DNA from: Kiritimatiellia bacterium | GTDB lineage: Bacteria; Verrucomicrobiota; Kiritimatiellia; RFP12; JAAYLN01 | Length of the DNA stretch: 64,000 bases | Assembly: GCA_017962605.1 (NCBI GenBank) | Contig: JAGCUY010000007.1 | Location: forward strand, 752-64,751 | Direction of reading: 5' to 3' | Shown here: one piece after another, positions 36,593 to 51,097 of the stretch | Layout of the letters: every line of letters starts with the position of its first letter | Numbering within the stretch: position 1 is the first letter of the stretch | Notes under the pieces: model-generated | Seen by the model: only the letters and a program-made list of their open reading frames with translations | The model's database searches: none | Told to the model about the DNA's origin: nothing | Program-made: the position numbers and the translations under genes

Positions 36593-36604
36593 GGAGTATT
36601 CATC

Positions 36605-37381
36605 ATGAAGTTCATCTGTCCGCATTGCAATCAGCATTTGGAGAGTGAAGAGGATGTTGCAGGAATTGGCGTTGAATGCCCCAACTGCGGCAAAACGTTT
36701 GTCGCGGCATCCTCTGGCGCGGAAACCATGCTGGGGGAAGCTCCACAAGAGCGAACGTCTGAAGGCGAACTCGACGCTGCCAATGACTTTCTTGAACGCG
36801 CGATTGGAAACATTCTGCATGCAATCTGGGGCATAATTAGCAGAATCGGCCATGTGATTAAATGGCTTGCAATGCGCCTGTATGATGTTGTCAACTGGTT
36901 ATTCAGAATGCTAATCGACATTGTGAAGTTCTTCTTCACAATCCGTTTCCTGAAGCTTCTGGTTTTGCTGGTAGTTCTTGCGGTCGTATGCGCCGTCTTT
37001 GCGGGTATAATCGCTGCGCCGTTCTTCCTTTTGATTTGGTTCGCTCAGGGGACGCCTTGGGGCACGATGAAGAGTCTGATGGGCATGCCTTTCGTCGACG
37101 CGACCAGAGTTGTTGGGCGGACGGTGTATGCATGGCTCTGCGGAGAAGGGGTCAAACATGGTCTTTACAATGCGGCATGGATTGTTGAGGGAGTTTGGTT
37201 GGTATTGTTTGCAGGTTGGGGTGCCTGGAAGGGCGTTAAGAGCTACAAGCGCGGTGTGATTGCGCGCTGGCGTGAACGTCGAAGGATTCGTAAGGCTGAA
37301 CGCCGTGCGGAAAAGGAAGCCAGACGGGCAGCAAAAGAAGCAGCAAGGCAGGGCGAGGCCCAGCCACTCGCTATTCGCTAG
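36605..37381 (+). CDS. Zinc-ribbon membrane protein (hypothetical)
   Basis: N-terminal 'CPHCNQ...CPNCGK' ribbon, several TM helices, and a C-terminal Arg/Lys/Glu-rich tail. RBS 'gaggag' is present. Confidence 0.4.
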   Translation: MKFICPHCNQHLESEEDVAGIGVECPNCGKTFVAASSGAETMLGEAPQERTSEGELDAANDFLERAIGNILHAIWGIISRIGHVIKWLAMRLYDVVNWLFRMLIDIVKFFFTIRFLKLLVLLVVLAVVCAVFAGIIAAPFFLLIWFAQGTPWGTMKSLMGMPFVDATRVVGRTVYAWLCGEGVKHGLYNAAWIVEGVWLVLFAGWGAWKGVKSYKRGVIARWRERRRIRKAERRAEKEARRAAKEAARQGEAQPLAIR

Positions 37382-37419
37382 CCAAATCGGCGACACAATC
37401 CAAGAAAGGACGGTAAAAC

Positions 37420-38499
37420 ATGGGCACGATACTTGGAGACATGTTCAAGAAGGTCGGGGGTGGCCTTGGAAAAGGCTTTGCGTCATGGCTTGGGCAAATC
37501 TCGACGTGGATTGCGCTTTTAGTCGCAACAGTACTGGCTGTCGCATCTCTGGTTGGCGGCATCTTCTGGATCCCGACAAAAACGCTGGGCGTCCTGATCG
37601 CTGGCATCGGGTGTTTAGCTTCCGGCATTCTCTTTGCCCTCTGTCTGCGAAAGAGCGGAGTATTTGGCTCAAAGGATGCGGAAACCCGTGCTGCATTGCA
37701 GAAGGAAATCGAAAAACTCCGCTGCGAAAAGGATGCCCGCATCGCCGCGTTGGAGGCCGACAACGAACGTCTAAAGCACCAGCGCATCGACGTCAATTCG
37801 TTCGCGCCCATCCTCAAGCTGGGACTTGCCGAGGCTGACATGTCAGTTCGTGATGTGAAAATCGAATGGATGGACGATTTCAAGCCAGGAAACATGTTGA
37901 CGAATGTGATTGGCTACCCCGCGCGCAGCAAATACGTTGGTGTCATTCAACGGTCGTTCAAGGCCGTTTATGGCGTCGATTTGATGAAACTCAAGATTTG
38001 CGAGGATAACGACTGTCTTCGCATAGCCGGTATCGTGCCGGAGAACATCGGCATCAAGGATGACGAAACGCGCTGGCTTCTGCGTCAGACGCAGACTTTC
38101 CGGTTGAAGGGAACTCCTCTGACGCGCGGCGATGGCATCCCGCAGCAATGCGCCATAGGCGACGGCTGGGGCGATGGCGAGAAATTCTGGCAAATCGACA
38201 AGGAAGCGCCGTTCGAGGGCAGTCTCGATCTCAACAAGACTGCGGAAATGGCGAGTGCGCAGGAGCACGAGCTTGGCGAACGCATCAACCGAAGCCAGGG
38301 CGCCGAGTTTAGGATGATGAATGGCTACATCCAGCAAATGGCGCAAGGGTTTGTCAGACTCCTCCTCGCTCCCGCCCACAAGCCTGTGGTCTTCGTACAG
38401 ACTCCGCTTGCCGAAATCGCCGACTCTCCAGCATGGCTCTCTCTGGAAGACTTCGCTGCCGGATTCAACAATAAGTTGCTGGCGGAAAACAAACCATGA
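37420..38499 (+). CDS. Membrane protein with coiled-coil segment and DUF4230-like C-terminal domain (hypothetical)
   Basis: Two N-terminal TM helices, a coiled coil 'ALQKEIEKLRCEKDARIAALEADNERLK', and a region resembling DUF4230 ('VIQRSFKAVYGVDLMKLKI...'). Confidence 0.35.
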   Translation: MGTILGDMFKKVGGGLGKGFASWLGQISTWIALLVATVLAVASLVGGIFWIPTKTLGVLIAGIGCLASGILFALCLRKSGVFGSKDAETRAALQKEIEKLRCEKDARIAALEADNERLKHQRIDVNSFAPILKLGLAEADMSVRDVKIEWMDDFKPGNMLTNVIGYPARSKYVGVIQRSFKAVYGVDLMKLKICEDNDCLRIAGIVPENIGIKDDETRWLLRQTQTFRLKGTPLTRGDGIPQQCAIGDGWGDGEKFWQIDKEAPFEGSLDLNKTAEMASAQEHELGERINRSQGAEFRMMNGYIQQMAQGFVRLLLAPAHKPVVFVQTPLAEIADSPAWLSLEDFAAGFNNKLLAENKP

Positions 38500-39134
38500 C
38501 CAAAACAAGAACGAAGAAGTCCGCCAAGGGTGGGGCCATGAAGCCTTCCCTGCGAGACCGCATCTACACCTCCTTCGAGCAGATGACGGATGCGTACAAC
38601 GAAGTGCGTGATGACCTGATCGCGCTGGGCATTCTTTGGAGGGGCTCGAAGCTCGACAAGGTGGAGTGCTACTATGAATCCATCGCCCCCATTGCCGCTC
38701 TCAAGGGGGGGATGGGGTATTTCAGTTTCAAGGACCACGACATCCATTTTCCCTCCTTATATCTGCCTTTCGGCTGGCTGACCGGCAGCGTTGGCGAAAA
38801 AGATTCTGCATCAAACGTGATCCGCCACGAGTTCGGCCACGCGCTCGCCGATCAGTACCCAGCGGCGCTGAAAAAGGGCGGGCTTTTCCGCGAGGCGTTT
38901 GGAGGAGTCTATTCCGACAAGCCTGCGCCCGACATCGATCCCGACAACTGGGAGTTCGATTGCGTCTCCCCCTACGCCGCAACCGAAACCCGCGAGGACT
39001 TCGCGGAGACTTTCATGCTTTTCCTGAAGCACAAGGGGAAGTTGCCGAAAAAGTTCGCTAATAAACCAGCCATCGCGAAGAAATGGGCCGCTGTGGCTGA
39101 AATCATAAAGCGCGTTCGTGCATTAGAAAACTGA
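38496..39134 (+). CDS. HExxH zinc metallopeptidase-like protein
   Basis: 'IRHEFGHALAD' (HExxH) with a downstream Glu in 'REDFAETF'. Its start overlaps the previous stop (ATGA). Confidence 0.5.
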   Translation: MTKTRTKKSAKGGAMKPSLRDRIYTSFEQMTDAYNEVRDDLIALGILWRGSKLDKVECYYESIAPIAALKGGMGYFSFKDHDIHFPSLYLPFGWLTGSVGEKDSASNVIRHEFGHALADQYPAALKKGGLFREAFGGVYSDKPAPDIDPDNWEFDCVSPYAATETREDFAETFMLFLKHKGKLPKKFANKPAIAKKWAAVAEIIKRVRALEN

Positions 39135-39161
39135 AAGAATACCTAATCAGGAGACCTCATC

Positions 39162-39872
39162 ATGAATAAAACAACAACGAAGAAAAATGCGCCAAAGGCG
39201 CGTAGGGAAACTGAAACCGTAGTCTGCCCACATTGCGATACGGAGTGCCTTGTGTCGGAAAACGGACGCTATGAGTGTCCAAATTGCACAGGACAGTTCG
39301 ATGTAGACTGGTTTGACACGCCGCATGTCCACCAGCCCGACTTGCAGACATGCGGCTGGGCGACGACAAAGTGGCTTCTGTCCGCATTTGGGTGTGAGAT
39401 GCCATCAAACAAGCAACTCGAACGGGAACTGCATGTCCGCAAAGGTCGCGATGGTCTTTCGGGCGCACTTCTCAAGGCTTACAACTACTTTATCGAAGCT
39501 TTCGGCAAGAAGTGGAACTGGCAAAAGATCGACTCTCAGGACATTTCTGGAACTTTGCCCACCGACCTTGTCGCGACACTCAATCGACATGGACTCAAGC
39601 CTGTATTTCCTGGAATCCGCGAACTGCTCCGCTATTCCGACTATAAGAACTACATGAAAGAAGTGTTCGCCCAGCAAGGCCGTTTTGCGCTCTTCTATGT
39701 TAACACGACCCGCGATGGGTCTTATGCACATTGGATCGGGATTGAGAAGTTCAAGAACAGGGTCCGCGTGATGGATCCCATGGACTATGACTACTCGCCG
39801 TTTTCAAAGCACGAAGCCATCCGCAGCAAGCGAATTCGCGCATGCTGCATGATTGGGTTCGTGAGGGCGTAG
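39162..39872 (+). CDS. Zinc-ribbon + Peptidase_C39-like (papain-fold) domain protein
   Basis: 'CPHCDTEC...CPNC' ribbon. C39-type 'QPDLQTCGWATTKWLLSAFG' (Gln/Cys) and 'SYAHWIGIEKF...VMDPMD' (His/Asp). RBS 'aggaga' is present. Confidence 0.5.
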   Translation: MNKTTTKKNAPKARRETETVVCPHCDTECLVSENGRYECPNCTGQFDVDWFDTPHVHQPDLQTCGWATTKWLLSAFGCEMPSNKQLERELHVRKGRDGLSGALLKAYNYFIEAFGKKWNWQKIDSQDISGTLPTDLVATLNRHGLKPVFPGIRELLRYSDYKNYMKEVFAQQGRFALFYVNTTRDGSYAHWIGIEKFKNRVRVMDPMDYDYSPFSKHEAIRSKRIRACCMIGFVRA

Positions 39873-39902
39873 GGCGCTGTCGCGCCTGAGAGGTTTGTCG
39901 CC

Positions 39903-40265
39903 CGTGGTTAGTGATTAGTCGTTAGTCATTAGTGGCTCGCATGGTGTGCATCCCCTATCGAATATTTTCCCGCACCGTAATCTATCGACTTCTCCGCACC
40001 GTGGTCTAGCGACAATTCCTAACCTTAGTCTAGCGACCTTTCCGACCCGTAGTCTATCGATGTTTCCTCGCCATAGTCTATCGACATTCCCGCATGGTAT
40101 AGCCTATCGACTTTTCCGAAACATGATCCAAAGTTTTTCCGAACCATGGTCAGTTTTTCTTTCCGCACCATGGTCTATTTTTCTTTCCGCACCATGGTCT
40201 ATTTTTCTTTCCGCACCATGGTCTATTTTTCTTTCCGCACCATGGTCTTGTGAAACGAATGCATG
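39903..40265 (+). repeat. Right island-flanking repeat (IR-R): 'gtggttagtgattagtcgttag' head plus ~12 degenerate 24 to 27-bp tandem units ending in 4 perfect 'tttttctttccgcaccatggtcta' copies
   Basis: Direct reading. It matches 42030..42310 in the same orientation and 24781..24900 in inverted orientation. Confidence 0.8.
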
Positions 40266-40369
40266 GCGGCGCCGCATCAGCAGCTTGCGCATAGCGGGAG
40301 TGGTTGTGATACTACTCAATCAGATGACAAAGTGTGTAGATAGCAGAATGCGCCTGAGCAGAATACAGG

Positions 40370-40452
40370 TGGTTGTGAAAATGGAAAATTTGGCATATTT
40401 TGTGGTTGTGAAAATGTGAAAATCTGTATGTTTTATGGTTGTGAAAATGGAG
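40370..40452 (+). promoter_or_regulatory. Three ~31-bp direct repeats 'ggttgtgaaaatg' (iteron/operator-like) plus -10-like 'gatataat' upstream of the AAA ATPase
   Basis: 'ggttgtgaaaatggaaaatttggcatattttgtggttgtgaaaatgtgaaaatctgtatgttttatggttgtgaaaatggagcgaatatgatataat'. Confidence 0.4.
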
Positions 40453-40491
40453 CGAATATGATATAATATCTTGAATTTTGGGAGAATCTGC

Positions 40492-41862
40492 ATGATAAAC
40501 AGAAAAATAATGAAGAGGCTTGAACTCCTGCGTACTTCCAATGGAAAGCACGCGCTTCTCATCGATGGCGCGCGACAGACTGGGAAGACTTACATTGTAA
40601 GGGAATTCGCAAAAAGACATTACGAGTCCTTCATTGAAATCAACTTTATCAGAATGAAGAGGGCTCGGGAAATTTTCGAAAACGTCGAAGACGAGAAGGA
40701 CATCCTTGTAAAACTGTCAGCCCTGTTTAAGAAACCGCTGAAGAAAGGCGCAACGCTTGTGTTCCTTGACGAAGTTCAGGAATGCCCGGAGGCTGTCACT
40801 TACATCAAGTTTTTGGTGGAAGAGGGGTCGTGCCATTATGTGTTGAGCGGGTCCCTGCTGGGTGTCGAACTCAAAAACATTCGTTCGGTGCCTGTCGGGT
40901 ATATGGATGAGGTGAAGATGTATCCGCTGGACTTTGAGGAGTTCGTCGAGGCGAACGGTGAGTCCCCTGAATTGGTAGAGGCCGCAAGACAGTCGTGGAA
41001 CAAGCGCCGCCCGCTTGCCTCCGTCTATCACACGAGGCTGCTGAAACTTTTCCGGCTTTACCTTGTTGTTGGCGGCATGCCCGCCGTTGTCCAGAAATAC
41101 ATCGACACCCACGACATCGCCCAAGTCGTGCGCGAACAAAAAAAGATACTTGCGCTCTACCGCCGGGACATAACGCAATACGACGAGGCGAATTCCCTTC
41201 GAATTCGTGCCGTGTTCGACCGCATTCCGGCGGAGCTAAACGAGAAGAACAAGCGGTTTTTTGCGTCTTCCATAAAACCGGGCGTGAAGTTTGAAAACCT
41301 TGGAGACGAGTTCCTTTGGCTGAAAGAGGCTGGCGTGGCCCTTGCCACGGTTAACGTGGAGGCGCCGAAGTCGCCGCTCAAGCTTGCTGAGAAGCCAAGC
41401 TTGTTCAAGCTGTTTTCAAACGATGTCGGACTTCTGGCGGCCCAGTACATGAATGGAATCCAACTTGAGATCTTGAATGGAGCCGTGGATGTCAACTTTG
41501 GGGCCGTTTACGAGAACGCTGTGGCGCAGGAACTCGCCGCGCATGGGTTTGAGTTGAACTATTACGATTCAAACAGGCACGGGGAGATTGATTTTGTTTT
41601 GGAGCGCGAAGGGGGCGTTCTTCCCGTGGAAGTCAAGAGCGGAAAGCACTACAAGCGGCATCGTGCGTTGAACCATGTAATGGCGGACCGTGAATACGCG
41701 ATAAAGGAGGCGCTTGTCCTTGACGATTCGATGCTTTCCGTTGAAAATGGGATATTCTATGCGCCAATCTACATGGTCATGTTCCTGAAAAGGGACACCA
41801 TGCCTGAGAAGATGATCTACTCTGTAGGCACACCGCTGGAAGTGGCAAAAGCCTTGTCATGA
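40492..41862 (+). CDS. AAA+ ATPase (AAA_14 + DUF4143 family ATP-binding protein)
   Basis: Walker A 'GARQTGKTY' and Walker B 'LVFLDEVQ'. RBS 'gggaga' plus ATG at 40492 (the track start at 40471 is TTG). Lower G+C. Flanked by direct repeats. Confidence 0.6.
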   Translation: MINRKIMKRLELLRTSNGKHALLIDGARQTGKTYIVREFAKRHYESFIEINFIRMKRAREIFENVEDEKDILVKLSALFKKPLKKGATLVFLDEVQECPEAVTYIKFLVEEGSCHYVLSGSLLGVELKNIRSVPVGYMDEVKMYPLDFEEFVEANGESPELVEAARQSWNKRRPLASVYHTRLLKLFRLYLVVGGMPAVVQKYIDTHDIAQVVREQKKILALYRRDITQYDEANSLRIRAVFDRIPAELNEKNKRFFASSIKPGVKFENLGDEFLWLKEAGVALATVNVEAPKSPLKLAEKPSLFKLFSNDVGLLAAQYMNGIQLEILNGAVDVNFGAVYENAVAQELAAHGFELNYYDSNRHGEIDFVLEREGGVLPVEVKSGKHYKRHRALNHVMADREYAIKEALVLDDSMLSVENGIFYAPIYMVMFLKRDTMPEKMIYSVGTPLEVAKALS

Positions 41863-42029
41863 ACTTCCAACATCCTGCAGCCCGAACCGCATCCACCGGC
41901 ACGGCCACGGCGGCAAGTGCATCTGGTGCGGCTCAACCTCCACCGGCAGCGGGTGCCCATACTCCCCTACCCGCCGGCATGAACGGTAGAGGGCAGTGTG
42001 AACTTAGTCGCAATACTGTCTGAAGTTAA

Positions 42030-42310
42030 TCATTAGTCGTTAGCCGTTAGTCACTAGTCGTTAGTGGCTCGCACGGAGTGTATTCCCTATCGAATACTTT
42101 CCCGCACCGTAATCTATCGACTTCTCCGCACCGTGGTCTAGCGACCTTTCTGACCCGTAGTCTATCAATGTTTCCGCACTATAATCTATCGACATTCCCG
42201 CACGGTATAGTCTATCGACTTTTCCGAAACATGATCCAAAGTTTTTCCGAACCATGGTCTAATAATGTTTACGCTCCATGGTCTATTGGCATTTCCGAAC
42301 CATAGTCTTG
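42030..42310 (+). repeat. Second direct copy of the IR-R repeat
   Basis: 'cattagtcgttagccgttagtcactagtcgttagtggctcgcacggagtgtattccctatcgaatactttcccgcaccgtaatctatcgacttctccgcaccgtggtctagcgacc...'. Confidence 0.8.
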
Positions 42311-42314
42311 TGAA

Positions 42315-42410
42315 AGGGTGAGCCCTTCGGGCGAAGTTTGGAGGTTTGGCGCAATAGCGCCTTGGATGGTTGAGCCATTAGGGCGAAGTTTAGGAGTTTG
42401 GCGTGAAATC
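42315..42410 (+). repeat. 'gagcccttcgggcgaagtttggag' small repeat element (2 tandem copies)
   Basis: Further copies at 43116..43185 (same orientation) and 49275..49400 (inverted: 'ccaaacttccaaacttcgcccgaagggctcaaac'). Confidence 0.7.
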
Positions 42411-42423
42411 CTTTTTTTGTTTT

Positions 42424-42510
42424 TTTACCATGCGTTTCGTGGAAGTTTACAATTTTTTAACCATGCATTTCGTGGTAATATGACAATTTATTAACCACGC
42501 ATTTCGTGAT
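42424..42510 (+). repeat. Three ~31-bp direct repeats 'ttaaccatgcatttcgtgg' upstream of the truncated ATPase paralog
   Basis: 'accatgcgtttcgtggaagtttacaattttttaaccatgcatttcgtggtaatatgacaatttattaaccacgcatttcgtg'. Confidence 0.6.
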
Positions 42511-42517
42511 TGCTTGA

Positions 42518-43117
42518 TTGGCAAAAATATCGAAATATGATATTGTATTGGAGAGCAGCGCCCGTTTCCGCGAATACGAAGGTGCCTTCATGTGGCTAAA
42601 GGATGCCATGGTTGCAAATGTCGCCCTAAGCGTAACAGATCCGAACATTGGGTTTGACTTGAGCGCCGACGATGCCAAGATGAAATGCTACTTCCTTGAC
42701 ACGGGGCTTCTTGTCAGCCATGCGTTCAGCGAAAACGCGCTTGTCGCCGCCGACATCCACAAGAGAATTCTGTTTGATGACATCGAATTGAATGAAGGAA
42801 TGCTTGTTGAAAATGTCGTGGCCCAAATGCTATCTGCAGCCGGCCACAAGCTTTACTACTACTCAAATTCATCGCGGACCGATAGAGACTCCCGGATGGA
42901 AATTGACTTTCTCCTTGCCAGAAACACCCTGGGCGAGCGGAACAATGTTATTCCCGTTGAGGTGAAGAGCGGGAAGCGGACAACGCACCGTTCGCTAGAC
43001 AAGTTTCGCGCCAAGTTCGCAAACTACGTCCATACCCCTTGCATTCTTTCGCGGCGAGATTTAGAGATAAAGGACGGGATACTTTACCTCCCGCTCTACA
43101 TGACTCCATGTCTTTGA
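42518..43117 (+). pseudogene. N-terminally truncated paralog of the DUF4143 AAA ATPase (C-terminal ~200 aa only, no ATG)
   Basis: The ORF begins with TTG. It aligns to the C-terminal third of the 40492..41862 product ('FMWLKDAMVA' vs 'FLWLKEAGVA'; 'VIPVEVKSGKRT' vs 'VLPVEVKSGKHY'). Confidence 0.55.
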
Positions 43118-43316
43118 GCGCCGAAGTTTGGCGCTTACGCGCCCTTGATGTTTGAGCCATGCGGGCGAAGTTTGGAAATGGAGGATTGCGTGGCAGCGTG
43201 ATGGCAAAGGCTGGTTGCATTATTGCCGCTGTTTGCCTTTGAAGGGGCTTTTTTGATAAAATGAATATGTTGGAATTGCTTTATTTTTGAGAGTGAAAAA
43301 CAACGAGAACCAGGCA

Positions 43317-46300
43317 ATGAATAATTCATCTTTGCACCGCATCCCGCCAGCGGCCGCGCTGGCGCTGGCAGCGTTAGCCCTTTTTTGTGCCAACGCGGAG
43401 CCGCCGCGCTTCCTGGCCCCCATGCCGGGCAAGGAGGAGGAGAAGACGACTACCGACATCCTCCCCATCCCTCCCGAAGCGACCGAGGAGCAGAAGGAGG
43501 AGTATGAGAAGGTCATCGAAAAGGCCCGCACGGACGACGTGTCGGTGACAGACCAGGCCGCCCTCATGTATCGCGGCCTCGCCTGCCTAGTGGACGAGGA
43601 ATATGAGGAGTCCATCCCGTTCTTCGAGGAGGCCCTGCGTCGCGACCCCTCCCTCCAGGCCGCATGGGAGGGCCTTGGATGGGCCCATATCCGCATTGAT
43701 GACAAGAAGACCGCCAAGGCGATCTGGGATTATTTCCGCCGTTTGATGCCCGAACAGCCCCTTCCTTACGCCCTTCTCGGGCAAATGGCCGTCCTCGAAT
43801 ACGACTGGCCCCTCGCCGACAGGCACTTCAAAAAGTCCCTGGAGCTGAAGCCCGACCAGTTCGACGTGCGCTACTGGTACGCCCAGAACCTCATGCGCCT
43901 CGGCAAGGCCAGCGAGGCCGAGGACATCTTCCGCGCCCTCATAAAGCTTGAGCCGGACCGCCTCGACATCGAAATTGACCTCGCCGGCCTTCTCGTCCAG
44001 CGCCTCGAATACAACGAGGCCGTTGAAATATACCGCCGCGTTAACGACGAGATTCCCGACAACCCCCGCTTCCTGCTTGAAGAGGCCCTTCTGGAACTCA
44101 AGGTGGGCGAAGTGACCCGCGCCGACGAACTCTGCCAGCAAGTGCTGGAGCTTGAGCCGTCGAACCTTGACGCCATGCGCCTCCGCGCAGACATCGCGGA
44201 GATCGTCGGCCTGAACGACATATCCCCTCTCCGCGACCTGATCGACCAGACGGACGACCCACTCCAGAGGGCCGCGCTGCGCATCCGCCTCGCCAACCGC
44301 TGCCTCCTTGAAAACCGCAGCAAGCCGGGGCAGTATGAACAGGACATGATCCTCGGCCTGATCCACGACGCCATCAAGGACAACCCGGCCAGCGTGGAGT
44401 ACCGCATTCTCTACGCCCAGCTGCTTGTGATGGACAACCAGTACGCGAAGGCCCGCGCCGTCGCGAACGCCGTCCTCGAGCGCTTCAACCGCGCCAATTT
44501 CGACGCCAAGCAGGTCCTGCTTGAAGTCGATATGCGCGAATCCAAATACGATGACGCCCTCCAGGTTCTTTCCGACCTTTACAGCGGCCTTTCCGCCGAT
44601 GACCCGATGGCCCACTACTACCGCGCCCGCATCTACACCTTGCAGGGCCGCTACGCCGATGCCAAGCGCGAAATAGACTTCATTGAGGCCGCAGCCAGCC
44701 AGGGCGCGGTCCTCTCGCTCGTTTACACCGCCCTCACGGAGAGCGACTGGACGCCCGCCACATCGGTCCGCCGCCTCCACGAGCACATACTCGCCCTCCA
44801 GCAGGAGGGGTGGATACTCGTTCCGCCGGCGGAAATAGAGAGGCTGCTCCGCCCACCGGAAGGCGAGCGGCGCTCCGGCGGCGTGGCGAAGGAGTCAATA
44901 CCCCTGACGGCAAAGCTCGTCGATTACTTCCGCTGGTGCTTCACCGGTAAGAGGAAATACCCATCGGAGGATTCCTCCTCCGCGATCGCCAAGCCCAAGA
45001 AATACTTCACGGTGTTCTTCGACGGCGACCTTCGCTCCTCCCTCCTTCTCGGCAACGAAGTCGCCGAGGACTTCGGCGTGCCATTCGGCATTTTCGTGCC
45101 TACCGGCCCATCCAAGGAATACGTGCCGTCGCGCGCCGGTTGGGACGAACTCCGCGACTACGCCCAGTCTGGCAACTGGGTGGTTGGCAGCCAGCTTCAC
45201 TACGCCTATGAAAAGAAGCCCGTGGACAAGGACAGCCTAGACTGGCGCCCGCCGCTGCCGAACCGCATCTGGCTCCCCGAGAAGAACCGCATTGAGTCCA
45301 TGGGCGAGTGGGACAAGCGCGTCCGCACCGAGTTCCGCATGAGTCGCAACGTCCTCAGACACGAAATGGGCGCGGACGACTCGGCAGTGCCGATGGTCGC
45401 CTATCCCTTCAACGACGTCGGCCAGGCGGGAGCCTGCAACCTCTACTCCGTCCGCGACCCCATAGGCACCATCGTAGCCGAGGCGGCGCGCTCCTATCGA
45501 CTGGGCTTCGTCCAGAGCCAGAGCGGCTACACGCTCTACGGCGACAACCTCCTCCTCTGCCGCCGCTACGCTCCGAGCTGGACCGACGAGGGCGCGGACG
45601 TCGTCCGCCACGCCTACGAGTACCACCCGCTCTTCATCGCGCGCAAGCTACGTGCCGAAGTGGCGATGCTAATGAACCACCCGAACGAGGCGAACGCCAT
45701 GGCAGACGTCCTGAAGCGCGACGGCTATCCCGACGAACTTTGCCGCCAGCTGGATGCGGCCATCCACTCCCACTTCCAGAACAAGCCCACACGCGAGCGC
45801 CCGCCGCTCGTTGTCGAGGAGGACTACTACGACGACAACACCAACGTCGTCATCGCCTCCTCCGTCAACGAGGGGACCGGCAACCCGCTCATCAGATTTG
45901 ACCACCCGTTCGTTGGCGCGCTTGCAATGCACAGCAAGGCCAATGACCAGATAGAGACCTTCGAATACGGCGCCCGCGCCGGCATAGACCTCTCGCGCAA
46001 CACCACGCTGGCCTTCGAGTTCACCAACGGCCGCATGGAGCAGACGGTCCGGCCGCGCTGGGATGCCGTCATCATCACGAACGTCCCATACTCGAAGAGC
46101 AAGTACAAGTTCAAGATGGAAACCCAGACCATCAAGGGCACGCTCACGCACCGCAATGAGAGCGGCACCATCCTCTCCGCCACCCTTGGCATCGCGAAGA
46201 AGTCCCGGGTCTCCACTTCGGTCTCCCTCACGGACATCAACCTCCAGGACGATCTCAACTCGCACGTGTTCACGCTTGATGACGACGACTCAACCGTTGT

Positions 46301-46976
46301 CGGCGCGCTGGGCGCCCTCTGGAACCCCACTGACAACCTCCGCCTCCACTTCATCTACAGCCACGACTACGTGTCATCGGCGGTGAAGAACATCGACTAC
46401 CACGGCGTGAGCGCGAACATGCTGTGGAAGCCGGAGGACGGCTGGAACGTGAACAGCATGGTGCAGTACAGGACCTACAGCGACGACAACGCCTTCTACA
46501 ACGGCATGGTCGAATCCATGTGGGAGACAAGCCAGGACAGTGGCATCTGGGCCGGCCTGCAGCTCTCTACCGTCTCCACCAGCGAACCGCACGACTTCTA
46601 CTGGACACCGTATTGGGACCAGCGCGCCCTGGGCGTCCTCCGCTACACGCAGAACCGCGAGGGCTACCACCTTTCGCTCAGCCTCCTCGGCGGCCTCCAC
46701 CGGGACGAGGCGCGTTCGGACCGCCTTTACGAGACGGAGGTGACCCACGAGAAGGTCGTCGTGGTGGATGGTGTGGAAAATACCGTCAAGGAGACCGGAA
46801 CCGAATACGTGGTCATGGAGACCGGAGCCGCCGGGTGGCATAAGATCTGGGGCTTCTCCGCCAGCTACGAGAAAGACCTTTCCCCGAACTTCACGCTGAT
46901 CATGGAGGGGCAGGTCATGGCGCTGCGCGACTACATCGACCACATGGCGCTCGTCTATCTGCGCGTGAATTTCTAG
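43317..46976 (+). CDS. Single-polypeptide TPR + CE4 polysaccharide deacetylase + C-terminal outer-membrane beta-barrel (PgaA/PgaB-like fusion) exopolysaccharide export/modification protein
   Basis: ATG at 43317 gives signal peptide 'AAALALAALALFCANA'. About 450 aa of TPR helices follow. NodB-like 'KYFTVFFDGDLRSS'. The C-terminal ~400 aa have alternating beta-strand character, and the terminal 'YLRVNF' aromatic residue is typical of OM barrels. Confidence 0.55.
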   Translation: MNNSSLHRIPPAAALALAALALFCANAEPPRFLAPMPGKEEEKTTTDILPIPPEATEEQKEEYEKVIEKARTDDVSVTDQAALMYRGLACLVDEEYEESIPFFEEALRRDPSLQAAWEGLGWAHIRIDDKKTAKAIWDYFRRLMPEQPLPYALLGQMAVLEYDWPLADRHFKKSLELKPDQFDVRYWYAQNLMRLGKASEAEDIFRALIKLEPDRLDIEIDLAGLLVQRLEYNEAVEIYRRVNDEIPDNPRFLLEEALLELKVGEVTRADELCQQVLELEPSNLDAMRLRADIAEIVGLNDISPLRDLIDQTDDPLQRAALRIRLANRCLLENRSKPGQYEQDMILGLIHDAIKDNPASVEYRILYAQLLVMDNQYAKARAVANAVLERFNRANFDAKQVLLEVDMRESKYDDALQVLSDLYSGLSADDPMAHYYRARIYTLQGRYADAKREIDFIEAAASQGAVLSLVYTALTESDWTPATSVRRLHEHILALQQEGWILVPPAEIERLLRPPEGERRSGGVAKESIPLTAKLVDYFRWCFTGKRKYPSEDSSSAIAKPKKYFTVFFDGDLRSSLLLGNEVAEDFGVPFGIFVPTGPSKEYVPSRAGWDELRDYAQSGNWVVGSQLHYAYEKKPVDKDSLDWRPPLPNRIWLPEKNRIESMGEWDKRVRTEFRMSRNVLRHEMGADDSAVPMVAYPFNDVGQAGACNLYSVRDPIGTIVAEAARSYRLGFVQSQSGYTLYGDNLLLCRRYAPSWTDEGADVVRHAYEYHPLFIARKLRAEVAMLMNHPNEANAMADVLKRDGYPDELCRQLDAAIHSHFQNKPTRERPPLVVEEDYYDDNTNVVIASSVNEGTGNPLIRFDHPFVGALAMHSKANDQIETFEYGARAGIDLSRNTTLAFEFTNGRMEQTVRPRWDAVIITNVPYSKSKYKFKMETQTIKGTLTHRNESGTILSATLGIAKKSRVSTSVSLTDINLQDDLNSHVFTLDDDDSTVVGALGALWNPTDNLRLHFIYSHDYVSSAVKNIDYHGVSANMLWKPEDGWNVNSMVQYRTYSDDNAFYNGMVESMWETSQDSGIWAGLQLSTVSTSEPHDFYWTPYWDQRALGVLRYTQNREGYHLSLSLLGGLHRDEARSDRLYETEVTHEKVVVVDGVENTVKETGTEYVVMETGAAGWHKIWGFSASYEKDLSPNFTLIMEGQVMALRDYIDHMALVYLRVNF

Positions 46977-47030
46977 CCATAACCTGAAGATTTGGTAGCA
47001 TACTTAAGTTTTCTACAAGGAGAAGCAGTC

Positions 47031-49271
47031 ATGATTAAAGAAAAGGCAATTGAGATTTGGAGTTTCTTCCGCGCGGCCGGCGTGCTGCAGGCGGTAGTGG
47101 ACGCAAAGGCGTTCCGCGCGCTCAAGGAGCTGCCCAACGAGAACTGGGCCGTGCTGAGCTGCCCGACTACCGGGCTTGACTTCGATGCCCGCACGCTCTC
47201 CTTCATGGACGGCAACGGCGACGGCCACATCCGCATCGAGGAGGTCCTGGGCGCGCTCGCCTGGATGGAGAAGCGCATCGGCGACATGGCCGAGCTTCTC
47301 GACGAGAAGGACGAGGTCGCGCTGTCTTCGTTGTCCGGCACCGACGAGGGCAAGGCCCTCGCCGCTGCGGCGCGTGCTGTGCTGAAGGCCGTAGGCAAGG
47401 ATGGCGCCGCGTCGCTTTCATTGGCCGACGTGCTGGCCCGCTCCGCTTCGTTCAAGGCGGCCGACTTCAATGGCGACGGCGTCCTGGTTCCGGCGGCGGC
47501 CAAGGAAGCGGGCCTTGACGGGCTTATCGGCGAAATCCTCTCGGCCACCGGCGGCGTTTCCGACAGGAGCGGCGCCAACGGCGTGGACAAGGCGACCCTC
47601 GAGGCCTTCTACTCCGACTGCGCCGCATGGCTGGCCTGGCTGGACGCCGGCCGCGCCGACGCGGCGAAGACGCTTCCTCTCGGCGACGCCACCGAGGGCG
47701 CCGTCGCGGCGTTGGATGCCGTGCGCGCCAAGATCGACGACTTCTTCGGCCGCTGCGACCTGATCGCCTTCGACGGCGCGGCATCCGCGGCCCTCAACTG
47801 CGGGGAAGGGGACTACGCGGCAATCGGCAAGGAAGAGGTCGCCGCAGGCGCCGACGCCATCGCCGCCTTCCCGCTGGCCAAGGCCGCGGCTGGCGCGGCC
47901 CTCGACCTCGGCGGCGCCATCAACCCGCAGTGGCGCGCGAGGATCGACGACTTCATCGCCAAGGCGCTCAAGCCGACGCTCGGCGAAAAGGCATCGCTGA
48001 CGCGCGAGGACTGGGCGAAGGTCAAGGCGAACTTCGCTCCCTTCATCGCCTGGAAGGCGTCGGTCGCCGGCGCCCGCGTGGCGGGGCTTGGCGAGGCGCG
48101 TGTCCGCGAGATCGTCGCCGACGCCAAGGCGAAGGACACCCTCGTCGCCCTAATGGACAAGGACCTGTCCTACTCCGGCGAGATCGACCAGCTCGATGAC
48201 CTTGAGAAGTTCCTGCGCTACCACGCGAACCTCAACCGCTTCCTCAACAACTACGTCAATTTCTCCGACTACTACAACCCGGACCGCCCCGAGATATACC
48301 GCGCCGGACGCCTCTACATCGACGGGCGCGTCTGCCGGGAGTGCGTCTATGTGGCCGACGTCGGCGCGCACTCGACCCTCGCCGCGTCAAGCAAGATGTT
48401 CCTGGCCTACTGCAAGGTCACGCGGCCGCAGACGGGCGAGACGCGCACCATCTGCGCGGCGGTTACGGCGGGCTTCTCCTCGACGCTCTGGGTCGGCCGC
48501 AACGGCATCTTCTACGATGCGCAGGGCAACGATTGGAACGCCGTCATCATAAAGGTGTGCGAATGCCAGATCAGCCTGAAGGAAGCCTTCTGGGCGCCGT
48601 GGCTGAAGATCAGCGAGCTTATCAGCGACCAGATCAAGAAACTGCTCTCGTCCAAGGAGACGGCCATGATGTCGGCCGCGACGACCAAGGTCGGCACGAT
48701 TGGCGAGCAGCCGGCGGCCGCGCCTGCGGCGGAGCCGAAGCGCGACGGCGCCGCGATGGCCTCGTCGGTTGCGGCGATCGGCATTGCGATTGGCATCATC
48801 GGCTCGGCGATTGGCGGGCTGGTCTCCGCGCTGAAGGGCATCTCCTTCTGGTATGGCGTGCTTGGCGTGGCGGCAATCGTGCTTGCCGTGTCCGGTCCGT
48901 CGGTTATCCTGGCCTGGTTCAAGCTGCGGTCGCGTGACTTCGCGCCGGTGCTGAACGCATGCGGCTGGGCCATCAACAAGAAGATGCTCATGCCGATGCG
49001 CCTCTCTCGCGTCTTCACGCACGAGGCGGTCATCCCGGTTGGCTCCAACATCAAGCTCGAAGACCCCTATGTCGAGAAGCACTTCTGGCGCAAGACGCTC
49101 ATCGTGGTCCTTGTTCTGGCGGGGTTGGGATTCTGGGTTTGGAAGTGGCACAACAACTGGCTGCCGGAGTCGCTACAGCGCAAGGCCCCCGTCGCCGAGC
49201 AGGCGGCGGAGGCCGCGCCCTGCGCCGACGAAGCCCCGGCTGAACAGCCGGCAGAGCCTAAGGCTGACTAG
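47031..49271 (+). CDS. Hypothetical membrane protein with EF-hand-like Ca-binding loops and C-terminal TM helices
   Basis: RBS 'aaggag' plus ATG at 47031. 'DGNGDGHIRIEE' and 'DFNGDGVLV' are EF-hand-like loops. The C-terminus has 'IGIAIGIIGSAIGGLVSAL' and two further TM helices, plus an acidic tail. Confidence 0.4.
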   Translation: MIKEKAIEIWSFFRAAGVLQAVVDAKAFRALKELPNENWAVLSCPTTGLDFDARTLSFMDGNGDGHIRIEEVLGALAWMEKRIGDMAELLDEKDEVALSSLSGTDEGKALAAAARAVLKAVGKDGAASLSLADVLARSASFKAADFNGDGVLVPAAAKEAGLDGLIGEILSATGGVSDRSGANGVDKATLEAFYSDCAAWLAWLDAGRADAAKTLPLGDATEGAVAALDAVRAKIDDFFGRCDLIAFDGAASAALNCGEGDYAAIGKEEVAAGADAIAAFPLAKAAAGAALDLGGAINPQWRARIDDFIAKALKPTLGEKASLTREDWAKVKANFAPFIAWKASVAGARVAGLGEARVREIVADAKAKDTLVALMDKDLSYSGEIDQLDDLEKFLRYHANLNRFLNNYVNFSDYYNPDRPEIYRAGRLYIDGRVCRECVYVADVGAHSTLAASSKMFLAYCKVTRPQTGETRTICAAVTAGFSSTLWVGRNGIFYDAQGNDWNAVIIKVCECQISLKEAFWAPWLKISELISDQIKKLLSSKETAMMSAATTKVGTIGEQPAAAPAAEPKRDGAAMASSVAAIGIAIGIIGSAIGGLVSALKGISFWYGVLGVAAIVLAVSGPSVILAWFKLRSRDFAPVLNACGWAINKKMLMPMRLSRVFTHEAVIPVGSNIKLEDPYVEKHFWRKTLIVVLVLAGLGFWVWKWHNNWLPESLQRKAPVAEQAAEAAPCADEAPAEQPAEPKAD

Positions 49272-49274
49272 CCT

Positions 49275-49400
49275 GGCGCCTCCGCGCCAGACATCTAAAC
49301 TTCCCAGGCGCGCCAACGCCAAACTTCCAAACTTCGCCCGAAGGGCTCAAACTTCCAGGGCGCGCTAGCGCACACTTCTCGCCCTTTCGGGCAAGGGAAA
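49275..49400 (-). repeat. Inverted copy of the 'gggcgaagtttgg' repeat element
   Basis: 'ccaacgccaaacttccaaacttcgcccgaagggctcaaacttccagggcgcgc' is the reverse complement of the 42315/43116 copies. Confidence 0.7.
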
Positions 49401-49672: not shown

Positions 49673-49888
49673 ATGAAAATTGATGAGATAGGATCGTTTC
49701 TTGCACAACGGCGCAAGTCGCTGAAAGTCTGCCAGCGGGATTTGGCGGCCTTGAGCGGCGTTTCCGAACACGCGCTTGTCAATCTGGAACGCGGCATCGG
49801 CAACCCCACCCTAAAACTTGTCAATGCGGTGGCCGATGCATTGGGACTTGAACTTAACCTTTCCGTGAAGGACCAGGAGGCGACATGA
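49673..49888 (+). CDS. hipB: XRE-family HTH antitoxin (HipB-like)
   Basis: HTH 'LKVCQRDLAALSGVSEHALVNLERG'. It lies immediately upstream of the HipS/HipT-like genes. Confidence 0.6.
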   Translation: MKIDEIGSFLAQRRKSLKVCQRDLAALSGVSEHALVNLERGIGNPTLKLVNAVADALGLELNLSVKDQEAT

Positions 49889-50202
49889 AATGCGTTACGG
49901 TTTATGTGAAGGGGGTCGAGGCCGGTGTGCTTGCCCGCTTTCGAAACGGCAGCTATGAATTCCGCTATACGCGCCGTTATCAGGAAAGCGCGAGGCCGTC
50001 GGTAGCCTTTTCCCTTCCAAAGCGCAAGGCCGTTCATCGCTCGGCAAAGTTGTTCCCTTTCTTTTTTGGGCTGCTTGCCGAGGGCGAGCAGAAGCGAATG
50101 CAGTGCCGGACATTGCGGATTGACGAAAACGATCATTTTTCCCGCCTTGCGGAGACCTGCAGGGAGGGGACAATAGGAGCCGTGTATGTCCTCCCGCGCT
50201 AA
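49885..50202 (+). CDS. hipS: HipS-like protein (stand-alone HipA N-terminal subdomain)
   Basis: 105 aa; RBS 'caggagg'. It corresponds to the HipA_N region and overlaps the downstream kinase by 17 nt. Confidence 0.6.
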   Translation: MKCVTVYVKGVEAGVLARFRNGSYEFRYTRRYQESARPSVAFSLPKRKAVHRSAKLFPFFFGLLAEGEQKRMQCRTLRIDENDHFSRLAETCREGTIGAVYVLPR

Positions 50203-51097
50203 AGTCCCTGATACACTGCCGTTCACTAAAGCGGACCTGAGGCTTCCGGTTATCGCGCGAAAGGGACGGCGAAACTCAATTTCCGGAGTTCAGCCCAAGG
50301 TTTTGCTTTCGATTGTCAAGGGTGAACTTGCGGTTGTGGAGACCGGTGGTGACTTCATTCTCAAGCCCGCTCCGGAGGATTCCCGCGCCAAGTTTCTGTC
50401 GGACATTCCGGCAAACGAGCACTTGACGATGACAATCGCATCACGGCTGTTTCGAATCCAAACGGCGGAAAACAAATGTGTCCGCTTTGCCGACGGGGAA
50501 CTCGCGTACCTTACTCGCCGTTTTGACCGCAGGGGCGGCGAAACCCTCAGACAAGAGGATCTTTGCCAGATTGCCGGGCGCAGCGAGGAAACCCATGGCG
50601 AGTCCTACAAGTATGACTTCAGCTACGAGGAAATGGCCGACATCATCCGAATGGCCTGCCCAGCCTGTCGCGTGGAACTGCCGAAGGTCTTTCGGCAGAT
50701 TGTATTCGACTACATTTTTGCCAACGGCGATGCCCACTTGAAGAATTTCTCAGTCTATGAAAGCAAACTGGGCGACTATGTGATGACGCCTGCCTACGAT
50801 TTGCTCAACACTTTTTTGCATTATCCGGGCGACCCAACATTCATGGCATTGTCCCTTTTTGGCGATCCTGATTTCATGACGCCGGAGTTTGAGCATCTTG
50901 GCTATTACTCGACACCGGACTTTGTGGCATTGGGGCGGGCCTATGGGCTTGACGATCGGGCCGTTTGCAGGATTCTGGATGAATTCAAGACGAATTCAAA
51001 AAAGGTGGAATTGATGGTCAGGGACTCCCTTTTGTCCGAAGATGCGAAAAAGGAATACCTTTGCATCTTCTACGACCGCCTCGCAATGTTTCGCTGA
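50186..51097 (+). CDS. hipT: HipT-like Ser/Thr kinase toxin (HipA C-terminal kinase core)
   Basis: P-loop-like 'ISGVQPKVLL' and catalytic 'GDAHLKNFSV' (DxHxKN) are present. Confidence 0.7.
   Translation: MSSRAKVPDTLPFTKADLRLPVIARKGRRNSISGVQPKVLLSIVKGELAVVETGGDFILKPAPEDSRAKFLSDIPANEHLTMTIASRLFRIQTAENKCVRFADGELAYLTRRFDRRGGETLRQEDLCQIAGRSEETHGESYKYDFSYEEMADIIRMACPACRVELPKVFRQIVFDYIFANGDAHLKNFSVYESKLGDYVMTPAYDLLNTFLHYPGDPTFMALSLFGDPDFMTPEFEHLGYYSTPDFVALGRAYGLDDRAVCRILDEFKTNSKKVELMVRDSLLSEDAKKEYLCIFYDRLAMFR

Follow-up and report, generated by a model that had tools for sequence, protein, structure and literature searches.

In the PNAG system pgaABCD of E. coli, the exporter PgaA has a TPR scaffold that precedes an outer-membrane barrel at the C-terminus, and the deacetylase is a separate lipoprotein. 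In the Pel system, PelB combines TPRs with a barrel, and the CE4 deacetylase of PelA docks onto those TPRs. We analyzed a 64,000-nucleotide stretch of DNA (the window) from a Kiritimatiellae bacterium that contains a gene, here called gene A, whose product has the same TPR-then-barrel arrangement as PgaA (4y25, TMt 0.68), whereas its deacetylase-like domain lies within the porin polypeptide, between the TPR and the barrel. Our main reading, to which we assign a probability of roughly 0.7, is that gene A encodes the final component, located in the outer membrane, of a synthase-dependent exopolysaccharide (EPS) system, that its CE4-like domain is likely a pseudo-deacetylase, that the operon to which it belongs was split by an island, and that the gene following it (gene B) and the surrounding repeats are outside the system.

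Architecture of gene A and its CE4-like domain

The features of gene A and its leader are the following.

43233..43262, forward strand: sigma-70-like promoter match (TTGCCT-18-TAAAAT, with TG), a consensus match only, in the conserved gene A leader
43317..46976, forward strand: gene A, predicted outer-membrane exporter, 1219 aa
aa 1-28 of gene A: signal peptide, assigned by inspection of the N-terminus, hydrophobic and ending ANA/EPP
aa ~60-470 (43494-44726): TPR region, Pfam TPR matches with E down to 7e-22
aa ~556-760 (44982-45596): PgaB/IcaB-type CE4-like domain without the Asp-His-His triad
aa 761-830: helical linker (AF2 model)
aa 862-1219 (45900-46973): 18-strand beta-barrel (AF2 model)

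The open reading frame of gene A in the ORF listing was 43287..46976, giving 1229 aa if begun at TTG; database entries that are 99 to 100% identical start at the ATG at 43317 (1219 aa, P0001). The promoter match stands at the start of the segment common to the window and to L024, a strain 97% identical in DNA; this segment begins at 43231.

The signal peptide and TPR region that the original prediction had placed in this large protein were both borne out, the first by inspection and the second by the Pfam matches. The C-terminal outer-membrane barrel that it had also proposed was recovered in the AF2 model (pLDDT 80, pTM 0.67), which has 18 long strands over aa 862-1219; both the barrel and the domain arrangement come from a single AF2 model and a 39-sequence alignment. 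The top structural match of this model in Foldseek was BcsC (5e-10; 9b8h, 9b8a, and 6tzk, E 5e-10 to 3e-9), and the PgaA barrel was also retrieved. All 39 homologs end in F or W, and gene A itself ends in F. With its signal sequence, even number of predicted strands, and aromatic C-terminus, the protein thus has the properties of an outer-membrane barrel, and its domain order, with a periplasmic TPR domain ahead of a beta-barrel at the C-terminus, is the layout of PgaA and BcsC. An NCBIfam scan of gene A gave no match to PgaA or PgaB (TIGR03938), and the BcsC match was limited to the TPR and scored 24 bits against a cut-off of 858.

The fold of the CE4-like domain was recognized from structure and from pairwise comparison. 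Foldseek matched it to BpsB (5bu6_A, 8.4e-8) and PgaB (4f9j, 4f9d, and 3vus, 2-4e-7), and phmmer matched it to BpsB/PgaB 5bu6_A with an E value of 1.2e-4, both consistent with a NodB-type (beta/alpha) fold. The domain is of the subtype found in PgaB, IcaB, and BpsB, sharing their HxxxxH spacing and long LPxxxRYE...R insert. Since a single polypeptide has TPR, a PgaB/IcaB-like CE4 fold, and a barrel, it resembles PgaA with the N-terminal domain of PgaB inserted, and to this extent its earlier description as a PgaA-PgaB fusion stood; the part of that description that did not stand is the CE4 metal triad, which is gone. The alignment placed FFDGD of gene A at TFDD, with Gly in place of the second, metal-binding Asp, and GSQLHYAY at HxxxxH, with the His pair replaced by Gln and Tyr. 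The phmmer alignment pairs GSQLHYAYE of gene A with ASHSHNLHR of BpsB, and GSHLYDAHY of relative P0060 pairs with GLHTYDLHY of IcaB. PF01522 was not found in gene A at E<=0.01 in the Pfam HMM search; it does match gene A relatives of 34 to 45% identity, as well as more distant TPR proteins. With all three metal ligands replaced and this CE4-HMM check negative, the active NodB-like deacetylase core that had been predicted was not upheld.

The triad is whole in 13 of the 39 aligned gene A relatives and gone as a set in the other 26. The dN/dS of the CE4 segment was the lowest among all segments of gene A (0.016 versus L024 and 0.088 versus L004). Because the triad is lost and yet the segment is the most constrained, these alignments suggest that the domain is most likely a pseudo-deacetylase, that is, a noncatalytic module that binds or guides polymer.

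Partner genes and the inserted island

Five genes that precede gene A in relatives, and the block that lies between the last of them and gene A, were located in the window.

71..1579, forward strand: GT2 synthase (NodC/PgaC-IcaA-like), first gene of the ancestral operon; its start precedes the window
1601..5764, forward strand: 1387-aa inner-membrane-anchored PgaB-like/TPR protein with an N-terminal CE4 domain, middle domains without assignment, and TPRs
21042..22574, forward strand: MBOAT O-acyltransferase (AlgI/DltB/PatA-like; Pfam MBOAT 5e-26; NCBIfam DltB 1.9e-53, below cut-off)
22581..22823, forward strand: conserved hydrophobic protein of small size (about 70-80 aa), encoded between the MBOAT and SGNH genes
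22820..23572, forward strand: DUF459/SGNH protein (PatB-like O-acetyltransferase/esterase) with a signal peptide (Pfam DUF459 2.5e-44; NCBIfam PatB 7e-20, below cut-off)
23578..43230: low-GC (0.50-0.58) modular island, about 19.7-19.8 kb, between the SGNH gene and gene A

The gene order in contigs L001 to L003 is GT2, a 1488-aa TPR protein, MBOAT, a 90-aa protein, DUF459, and gene A, with the same order in L006 and L007, and in L004 and L005 it is MBOAT, a 69-aa protein, DUF459, and gene A. DUF459 adjoins gene A in all of L001 to L007, and a gene of 69 to 90 aa occupies the equivalent place in the gap between MBOAT and SGNH in L001 to L005. All five operon homologs upstream of gene A are present in the window, with identities of 40 to 83%. 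The GT2 is 83% identical to the GT2 of L001 to L003, the 1387-aa protein is 40% identical to the 1488-aa gene product of L001, and the MBOAT is 57% identical to that of L001 and colinear with L004. The translation of the small gene agrees almost throughout with that of the 69-aa gene of L004, and the ATG of the SGNH gene at 22820, a start taken from the L004 ortholog, overlaps the small-gene stop. The earlier proposal of a separate "locus B" is at odds with this order, in which gene A follows the GT2, PgaB-like/TPR, MBOAT, small-protein, and SGNH genes, all of which are in the window.

The GT2 matched Pfam Chitin_synth_2 (1e-22) and, both below cut-off, NCBIfam NodC (2.5e-33) and PgaC_IcaA (5.5e-23); this subthreshold NodC/PgaC similarity suggests that its product is probably a GlcNAc-type polymer. 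The 1387-aa protein matched NCBIfam PgaB (TIGR03938, 1.3e-24, below cut-off) and, by phmmer, BpsB 5bu6 (6.7e-11), in an alignment that gives TFDN and LACESNQG. Its CE4 domain is degenerate, with TFDN and without the His pair, and its orthologs in L001 and L006 are equally so.

Judged by these comparisons, the ancestral EPS operon is split here by a strain-variable, defence-like island, and gene A keeps a short conserved leader. A blastn comparison with L004 was colinear only at 21096-23577 and 43378-46976, and in L004 there are 279 nt between these segments. The GC profile falls across the inserted block, in which Pfam and PADLOC identified an AbiEi-like fragment, a C39-like peptidase, two dynamin-like and two Hsp70-like genes, PrsW, an AAA_14/DUF4143 ATPase, and a DUF4143 fragment; the island content differs in L024. 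Gene A is contiguous with GT2 in L001 to L003, L006, and L007, and in the window the GT2 lies 41 kb upstream. The GT2 and TPR genes are also separated by 15 kb from the MBOAT and SGNH genes, and these blocks are not contiguous in L004 either, so that the three blocks are assumed to work together in this genome.

In the proposed system, the processive NodC/PgaC-like GT2 would make the polymer, the MBOAT, small, and SGNH proteins would form an O-acylation module, and the 1387-aa PgaB-like/TPR protein, anchored in the inner membrane, would be a further member. The polymer would be handed across the periplasm to the TPR scaffold of gene A, would then pass its PgaB/IcaB-like CE4 domain, and would exit via its 18-strand C-terminal barrel.

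Gene B and the flanking repeats

The features downstream of gene A and the repeats are the following.

47031..49271, forward strand: gene B, conserved PVC protein, 746 aa
aa 60-71 of gene B (47208-47243): EF-hand-like loop 1, DGNGDGHIRIEE
aa 145-156 (47463-47498): FNGDG loop 2
aa 573-633 (48747-48929): glycine-rich, hydrophobic TM hairpin
aa 685-710 (49083-49160): third TM helix
23655..23750, reverse strand: related array with an 8-nt period (AACTTYTC, about 9 copies) that ends in GCGCCAGACATC, at the island left junction
42311..42404, forward strand: repeat array, two units of about 52 nt (GC hairpins and GAAGTTTGG words)
43116..43185, forward strand: repeat copy adjoining a truncated DUF4143 fragment
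49275..49400, reverse strand: inverted repeat array directly 3' of the gene B stop, five GC hairpins interspersed with CAAACTTC words

The open reading frame of gene B is 46992..49271 (759 aa from TTG), and database entries of 99 to 100% identity begin at the ATG at 47031 (746 aa, P0082). Searches with gene B gave no Pfam, NCBIfam, PADLOC, PDB, or fold match. The glycine-zipper membrane region originally described was confirmed as a glycine-rich hairpin. Two EF-hand-like loops had been described as well, and the first of these is conserved: D60, D64, G65, R68, and E71 of DGNGDGHIRIEE are invariant across 39 homologs, ligand positions 1, 3, 5, and 12 and Gly6 are filled, and helices 53-59 and 69-80 flank the loop. 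The second is conserved only at FNGDG, and the EF-hand HMM score of gene B was below threshold (Pfam EF-hand_5, 18.2 versus 25.9 bits). From the positive-inside rule, the large domain would be cytoplasmic.

Genes A and B are on the same strand with a spacing of 54 nt, and since no terminator was predicted in this gap, they are probably co-transcribed in this genome. Their proposed functional pairing did not survive the comparison of contexts. Gene B is not downstream of gene A in L001 to L007, which represent three other genome contexts (gene A proteins 84%, 68%, and 48% identical), it occurs elsewhere in unrelated housekeeping contexts, and among the contexts examined the pair is retained only in the 97%-identical strain, whose gene A protein is 99% identical. 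On this distribution, gene B is an unrelated, widely conserved PVC membrane protein that is downstream of gene A in this lineage only.

The forward and inverted repeat copies reported to flank the two genes are real: 42311-42404 and 49297-49371 form an inverted pair of 56-61 nt at 80-82%, and 43131-43177 and 49325-49371 form one of 47 nt at 87%. The exact 13-mer GGGCGAAGTTTGG occurs three times, only at these three repeat sites, with about 0.002 occurrences expected by our own arithmetic, and the word GCGCCAGACATC of the 23655..23750 array is also present at 49284-49295. The array 3' of gene B, retained in L024, L043, and L050, has a predicted RNA fold of -51.7 kcal/mol (z = -3.5) and could serve to terminate transcription or to stabilise the mRNA. 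As a meaningful bracket, the repeats failed: the copy at 43116-43185 is absent from L024, where an ATPase_2/HTH gene sits instead, the L024 counterpart of the 42311..42404 array has four units instead of two, and arrays occur at four or more other loci of related contigs (L032, L034, L036, and L029). A composite transposon or MITE was considered and rejected, as the two ORFs occupying 43.2-49.3 kb gave no transposase domain, gene A stands at its ancestral place after DUF459, and the upstream repeat copy is absent in L024.

From their sequences and distribution, the gggcgaagtttgg copies, found at three sites in the window, are best read as lineage-specific, dispersed, REP-like intergenic arrays whose copy number shifts between near-identical strains, and they define no unit. 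Like REP/BIME elements, they are short, GC-rich, palindromic, and intergenic and are arrayed in both orientations at several loci in strain-variable number; unlike them, each unit is a GC hairpin plus the word GGAAGTTTG, about 24-26 nt, restricted to one Kiritimatiellae lineage.

Competing readings and comparison with known systems

An autonomous EPS locus, in which an active PgaA-PgaB fusion and a calcium-sensing membrane partner form a possibly mobile unit delimited by inverted repeats, would agree with the fold-level architecture from AF2 and Foldseek, with the close spacing and strain-level retention of genes A and B, and with the inverted repeat copies. This reading is already largely refuted and is very improbable, given the missing triad and CE4 HMM match, the separate contexts of gene B, the variability and wider occurrence of the repeats, the two bracketed ORFs without a transposase domain, and the ancestral adjacency of gene A to DUF459, because of which gene A is not cargo. 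Functional recruitment of gene B in this lineage, with one transcript for both genes and with gene B linking EPS export to Ca2+ or a membrane signal, draws on the gap without a terminator-like site, the hairpin array that comes after gene B and not gene A, the A-B junction retained in L024, L025, and L026, and the invariant EF-hand-like loop. It is nevertheless quite unlikely: in the contexts examined the two genes do not co-occur outside the lineage, and gene B has no signal peptide, a large domain that would be cytoplasmic, and no likeness to any EPS component.

That the CE4-like domain is still an enzyme, either metal independent or with alternative ligands, for example an O-deacylase/esterase trimming MBOAT/SGNH acyl groups or a de-N-acetylase with a noncanonical site, is unlikely, with evidence on both sides. 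The catalytic-base Asp (the first Asp of TFDD) is kept in gene A as D569 and in 38 of 39 homologs, invariant positions include many charged and aromatic residues of the groove, the domain is under very strong purifying selection, and active-type (DDHH) and triad-less types fall within one orthologous family. CE4-fold enzymes without metal dependence exist, such as PuuE allantoinase, and together with the retained D569 this means that triad loss is no proof of lost catalysis. Against this, the three ligands disappeared as a set, in repeated and independent events in several clades, the usual signature of an enzyme becoming a pseudoenzyme, and not even close relatives share a substitute His or Asp (QLHYAY, QLHTAF, and QLYEAF). 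It is highly improbable that gene A encodes another kind of TPR-barrel outer-membrane protein (e.g., Slam-like or BamA-accessory-like) with a CE4-like domain that binds peptidoglycan. A weak Pfam TPR_Slam match (1.5e-6, below cut-off) and generic porin and autotransporter barrels in the Foldseek list point that way, but the best fold matches are the EPS porins BcsC and PgaA and PNAG deacetylases, and the gene order after GT2, MBOAT, and SGNH is strictly conserved in three distant lineages.

The preferred reading, a terminal EPS exporter, places gene A nearest to the pga system, in which PgaC, like NodC, is related to the partner GT2. The two differ in that PgaB has a C-terminal GH153 domain, whereas no GH domain was found 3' of the CE4-like domain of gene A, where the AF2 model has the helical linker and barrel, and in that the PgaA barrel has 16 strands, compared with 18 predicted here. 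Here, too, the metal triad is lost in the exporter, there is no PgaD, and the system gains MBOAT/SGNH as well as a second PgaB-like protein, of giant size and anchored in the membrane. Tentatively, Kiritimatiellia and Lentisphaeria may possess an undescribed class of synthase-dependent EPS system, in which the exporter CE4 domain, of PgaB/IcaB type, lies between the TPR and an 18-strand porin and has in most lineages, among them the present one, turned into a strongly conserved pseudo-deacetylase as the entire Asp-His-His site was lost, more than once, and in which the PgaB-like partner is degenerate too. If this is true, the degeneracy of both deacetylase domains implies that the exported polymer would be a fully N-acetylated, O-acylated GlcNAc-type polymer, with the two "dead" domains as periplasmic guides or gates.

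BcsC, the top structural match of gene A, belongs to cellulose export, and AlgE is an 18-strand barrel too. The GT2 here is chitin-synthase/NodC-like, in contrast to the cellulose and alginate synthases BcsA and Alg8, and no PilZ, BcsB, or Alg44 homolog was seen here. The MBOAT, SGNH-type, and small proteins within a synthase-dependent operon run parallel to Wss and alginate acetylation (WssFGHI and AlgI/AlgJ/AlgF/AlgX). PelA, PelB, and PelC gave no match in sequence or in fold, and the synthase type differs; the logic of the Pel system, with a TPR-tethered modifying domain beside the porin, is alike.

Gene A and its CE4-like domain

The two open reading frames of the original prediction were present as described, and near-identical database proteins begin at ATGs:

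43317..46976, forward strand: gene A, encoding a 1219-aa protein with TPR, CE4-like, and barrel parts
47031..49271, forward strand, downstream of gene A: gene B, encoding a 746-aa "EF-hand" protein

A database search returned a protein 99% identical to that of gene A (P0001), and the DNA of the window was approximately 97% identical to contig JAEEKQ010000010.1 of GCA_016282515.1. TPR families were the only Pfam matches in gene A (aa ~60 to 470; best, 7e-22). There was no PF01522 match at an E value of ≤0.01, and therefore the CE4 HMM test proposed with the original prediction fails on this protein. NCBIfam, where CE4, PgaA, and PgaB were sought, gave just TPR-driven, subthreshold matches. When PDB sequences were searched with phmmer, BpsB/PgaB (5bu6_A) was matched at 7.8e-4 by the whole protein and at 1.2e-4 by the domain alone. 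Despite the failed HMM, the CE4-like domain is, as judged from its sequence, homologous to PNAG deacetylases. With the non-TPR part as the query, 81 full-length homologs (1150 to 1290 aa) were found in Kiritimatiellae and Lentisphaerae metagenome-assembled genomes; PF01522 was carried by homologs of 34 to 45% identity.

The AF2 model of aa 480 to 1219 (39 sequences; pLDDT 80.2, pTM 0.67) consisted of an alpha/beta domain and a helical linker, followed, between aa 862 and the C terminus, by 18 long beta-strands. Foldseek comparison with the PDB matched this model to the cellulose porin BcsC (5e-10 to 3e-9), BpsB (8.4e-8), PgaB (2 to 4e-7), and the PgaA barrel 4y25 (TMt 0.68), and the C-terminal residue was F or W in 39/39 aligned homologs. 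At the fold level, the proposed arrangement of TPRs, a PgaB-like CE4 domain, and an outer membrane barrel in one chain was correct. A lipoprotein signal was rejected by inspection, as the A-L-F ahead of the Cys does not fit a lipobox.

An active NodB-like deacetylase core was not supported by alignment of the metal ligands, which are replaced in gene A. The motifs VTFDDA and GSHLYDAHY of one homolog (P0060) align with VTFDDG and GLHTYDLHY of IcaB (4wcj), and with ASHSHNLHR of BpsB; by this alignment they make up the PgaB/IcaB-subtype metal site (Asp and HxxxxH). At these motifs gene A has FFDGD and GSQLHYAYE, with the second Asp replaced by Gly, the first His by Gln, and the second His by Tyr; a His two residues further on is unconserved even among the closest relatives. 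The Asp-Asp-His-His set was complete in 13 of the 39 homologs (e.g., P0056 to P0067, P0071, P0075, and P0077 to P0080). In the remainder the ligands vanish together, with independent losses within the "GFNLGF" clade (P0069, P0070, and P0072). The CE4-like segment had the lowest dN/dS in gene A, 0.016 compared to the 97%-identical strain (L024) and 0.088 compared to the relative in L004, versus 0.059 and 0.13, respectively, for the whole protein. We infer that the domain keeps a noncanonical role, most simply the binding or guiding of polymer; catalysis by some unusual mechanism is a less favored alternative.

The conserved operon and its division

Three other genome contexts had gene A at the end of a conserved operon (identity of the gene A protein in parentheses):

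L001 to L003 (48%): GT2, 1488-aa TPR protein, MBOAT, 90-aa protein, DUF459/SGNH, gene A
L006 and L007 (68%): DUF4015/GHL10, GT2, 1379-aa TPR protein, MBOAT, DUF459, gene A
L004 and L005 (84%): MBOAT, 69-aa protein, DUF459, 328-nt gap, gene A

Homologs of the conserved operon genes are present in the window:

71..1579: GT2, 83% identical across the aligned N-terminal 248 aa, start outside the window
1601..5764: giant PgaB-like/TPR protein, 40% identical
21042..22574: MBOAT, 57% identical
22581..22823: small protein
22820..23572: DUF459 (SGNH), 54% identical

By NCBIfam, the GT2 was nearest to NodC and PgaC/IcaA, the MBOAT to DltB, and the SGNH protein to PatB, each below equivalog cutoffs. Relative to its L001 to L003 ortholog, the GT2 has an insertion of ~190 aa (aa 249 to 439 of the listed ORF), outside which it is unusually conserved (83% versus 40 to 57% for the other operon genes); the ortholog in L006 is 728 aa. 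The N-terminal domain of the giant protein was nearest to PgaB (TIGR03938, 1.3e-24, below the equivalog cutoff; BpsB, 6.7e-11). It is also degenerate, with TFDN at one motif and LACESNQG where the His pair is expected, and the catalytic His, second Asp, and His pair are all replaced; orthologs from distant genomes show an equal loss. This membrane-anchored protein has ~900 further residues without a detectable PDB homolog, TPRs apart, and PDB sequence searches with the middle and C-terminal parts of its 1387 aa gave no match.

Approximately 15 kb of carbohydrate utilization genes (5761 to 20265: an AraC regulator, GH127, two large unknowns, DUF5696, GDSL esterases, and an ATPase_2/ADH_N fusion) separate the GT2 and TPR protein from the MBOAT. 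This break is older than the island described below, because the neighbors of the L004 MBOAT are also not the GT2 and TPR protein. L004 was colinear with the window at 21096 to 23577 and 43378 to 46976 only (blastn), and the intervening block was 279 nt in L004 versus 19.8 kb in the window, with a GC content of ~0.50 to 0.58 versus ~0.62 in the flanks. Upstream of gene A, the 97%-identical strain instead carries an ATPase_2/HTH gene and one for a giant LRR/Flg_new protein. Its homology with the window restarts at 43231, 86 nt ahead of the gene A ATG, and a promoter-like site (43233 to 43262) falls in this shared leader. The differing content marks the stretch between the SGNH gene and gene A as a hot spot for insertions that vary from strain to strain. 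By synteny with relatives, what had been named a locus of its own, "locus B," is the cut-off terminal part of a larger system. An operon split by a strain-variable, defense-like island is a warning not to equate the gene neighborhood of a single genome with function. The possibility that gene A is cargo of the island was weighed and rejected.

The island genes include an AbiEi-like fragment and a 15-kb low-GC cassette (24787 to 39900) that codes for a C39-like peptidase, a PrsW protease, a Peptidase_Mx-like protein, and a Zn-ribbon protein, together with two GTPases of the dynamin-like kind (PADLOC LeoA/LeoBC matches) and two Hsp70-like paralogs. The LGFP repeats in one of the Hsp70-like genes are encoded by a 3 × 402-nt tandem repeat at 33828 to 35016. 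The cassette, which may be an undescribed conflict or defense module, lies between two inverted copies (24787 to 24908 and 39887 to 40008; 122 nt, 74% complementary) of a composite element. An AAA_14+DUF4143 ATPase gene (40471..41862; PADLOC candidate PDC-S01, 2e-184) lies between direct copies of a ~210- to 340-nt repeat block (39964 to 40248 versus 42096 to 42308; 84% identical) that combines TTAGTCGTTAGTGG words with tandem 24-nt units, and is followed by a second, 5'-truncated DUF4143 copy (42518..43117). A hipBA-type toxin-antitoxin module at 49680 to 51097 comprises an HTH gene, a Couple_hipA ORF (49885..50202), and a HipA_C ORF (50186..51097), and its HipA_C part (50118 to 51143) is cleanly missing in the 97%-identical strain. 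Direct repeats of 33 to 34 nt, in two or three copies each and differing in sequence among the three sets, stand immediately upstream of the AAA_14 gene (40369 to 40451), the DUF4143 fragment (42420 to 42508), and hipB (49453 to 49513); they look like operators or iterons.

Gene B and the repeat arrays

The gene B protein is 100% identical to P0082, named "MAG: hypothetical protein [Kiritimatiellae bacterium]." More than 438 homologs occur in Kiritimatiellae, Limisphaerales, and related bacteria, without Pfam domains save in one that has extra N-terminal EF-hands, and their genes adjoin purM, nadA, glnA, tatAC, and similar genes. Gene B was not found downstream of gene A in L001 to L007; the supposed gene pair is an adjacency confined to this lineage. 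Of the two EF-hand-like loops predicted, the first is well conserved and the second only partial. The AF2 model (pLDDT 83) was mostly helical, with a small beta-barrel at aa 426 to 510 and three C-terminal membrane helices. From the absence of a signal peptide and the Lys/Arg-rich loop joining membrane helices 2 and 3, the large domain is probably cytoplasmic; a Ca2+-responsive, membrane-associated role is our guess.

The repeat copies around the two genes are real, each unit being a GC hairpin plus GGAAGTTTG, and in the arrays short GC hairpins (GGCGC-N4-GCGCC and GAGCCC-TTC-GGGC) alternate with (G)GAAGTTTG words. The RNA fold of the array 3' of gene B was better than that of shuffled sequences (z = -3.5), and that of the upstream array was not (z = -0.97). 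The array at 42.3 kb has four units in the sister strain versus two in the window, and the 43.1-kb copy is missing there. Among 185,579 species-representative genomes, GAGCCNNNNGGGCGAAGTTTGG gave 11 single matches in unrelated phyla versus ~17 expected by chance (our own arithmetic), and the repeat is therefore not widespread. In a metagenome scan, related contigs had arrays of the same units at further loci: at least 8 units in L032, and other arrays in L034, L036, and L029. A related 8-nt array, AACTTYTC, in ~9 copies, lies at the left island junction (23655 to 23750), and an Rfam scan of the whole window gave no match. With copies varying between strains and occurring at other loci, the repeats behave like a lineage-specific REP/BIME-type element rather than marking off a gene pair. 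Transposon or MITE ends were weighed as an identity for them and rejected. The equivalent intergenic region of L004 (9700 to 9960) holds other simple repeats, GCATTGT/GCATTGC heptamers; low-complexity intergenic arrays seem typical of this lineage, yet fast in turnover.

Breadth of the family and comparison with known export systems

Exhaustive phmmer comparison of gene A with 1.84 billion representative proteins gave 382 clusters at an E value of ≤1e-3 and 61 at ≤1e-30. Approximately 20 full-length entries (1150 to 1290 aa) matched in both the CE4 and barrel parts, and many TPR + PF01522 proteins of 1000 to 1700 aa matched in the CE4 part alone. Source names were generic, either "tetratricopeptide repeat protein" or "polysaccharide deacetylase family protein." A 2020 census of EPS operons mentions GT-PgaB and BcsZC fusions, and 12 of its 13 passages on fusions name none of the PgaA-PgaB kind (PMC7112194). 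The one paper found on Kiritimatiellae EPS covers a different, glycosyltransferase-rich gene cluster (PMC7356697).

The architecture and synteny of the gene A system are solid, and its mechanism we infer. To our knowledge, the EPS genetics of the PVC superphylum is essentially undescribed, and the gene A family carries synthase-dependent EPS systems into it, in Kiritimatiellae of the gut and rumen. Such systems (PNAG, cellulose, alginate, and Pel) are models for the passage of polymer in Gram-negative cells from an inner membrane synthase to an outer membrane porin by way of TPR-tethered modifying enzymes. In the gene A family, porin and modifying domain share a single chain, and orthologs with and without the triad form natural pairs, which makes the family a ready-made system for studying the noncatalytic contribution of a PgaB-type domain to export.
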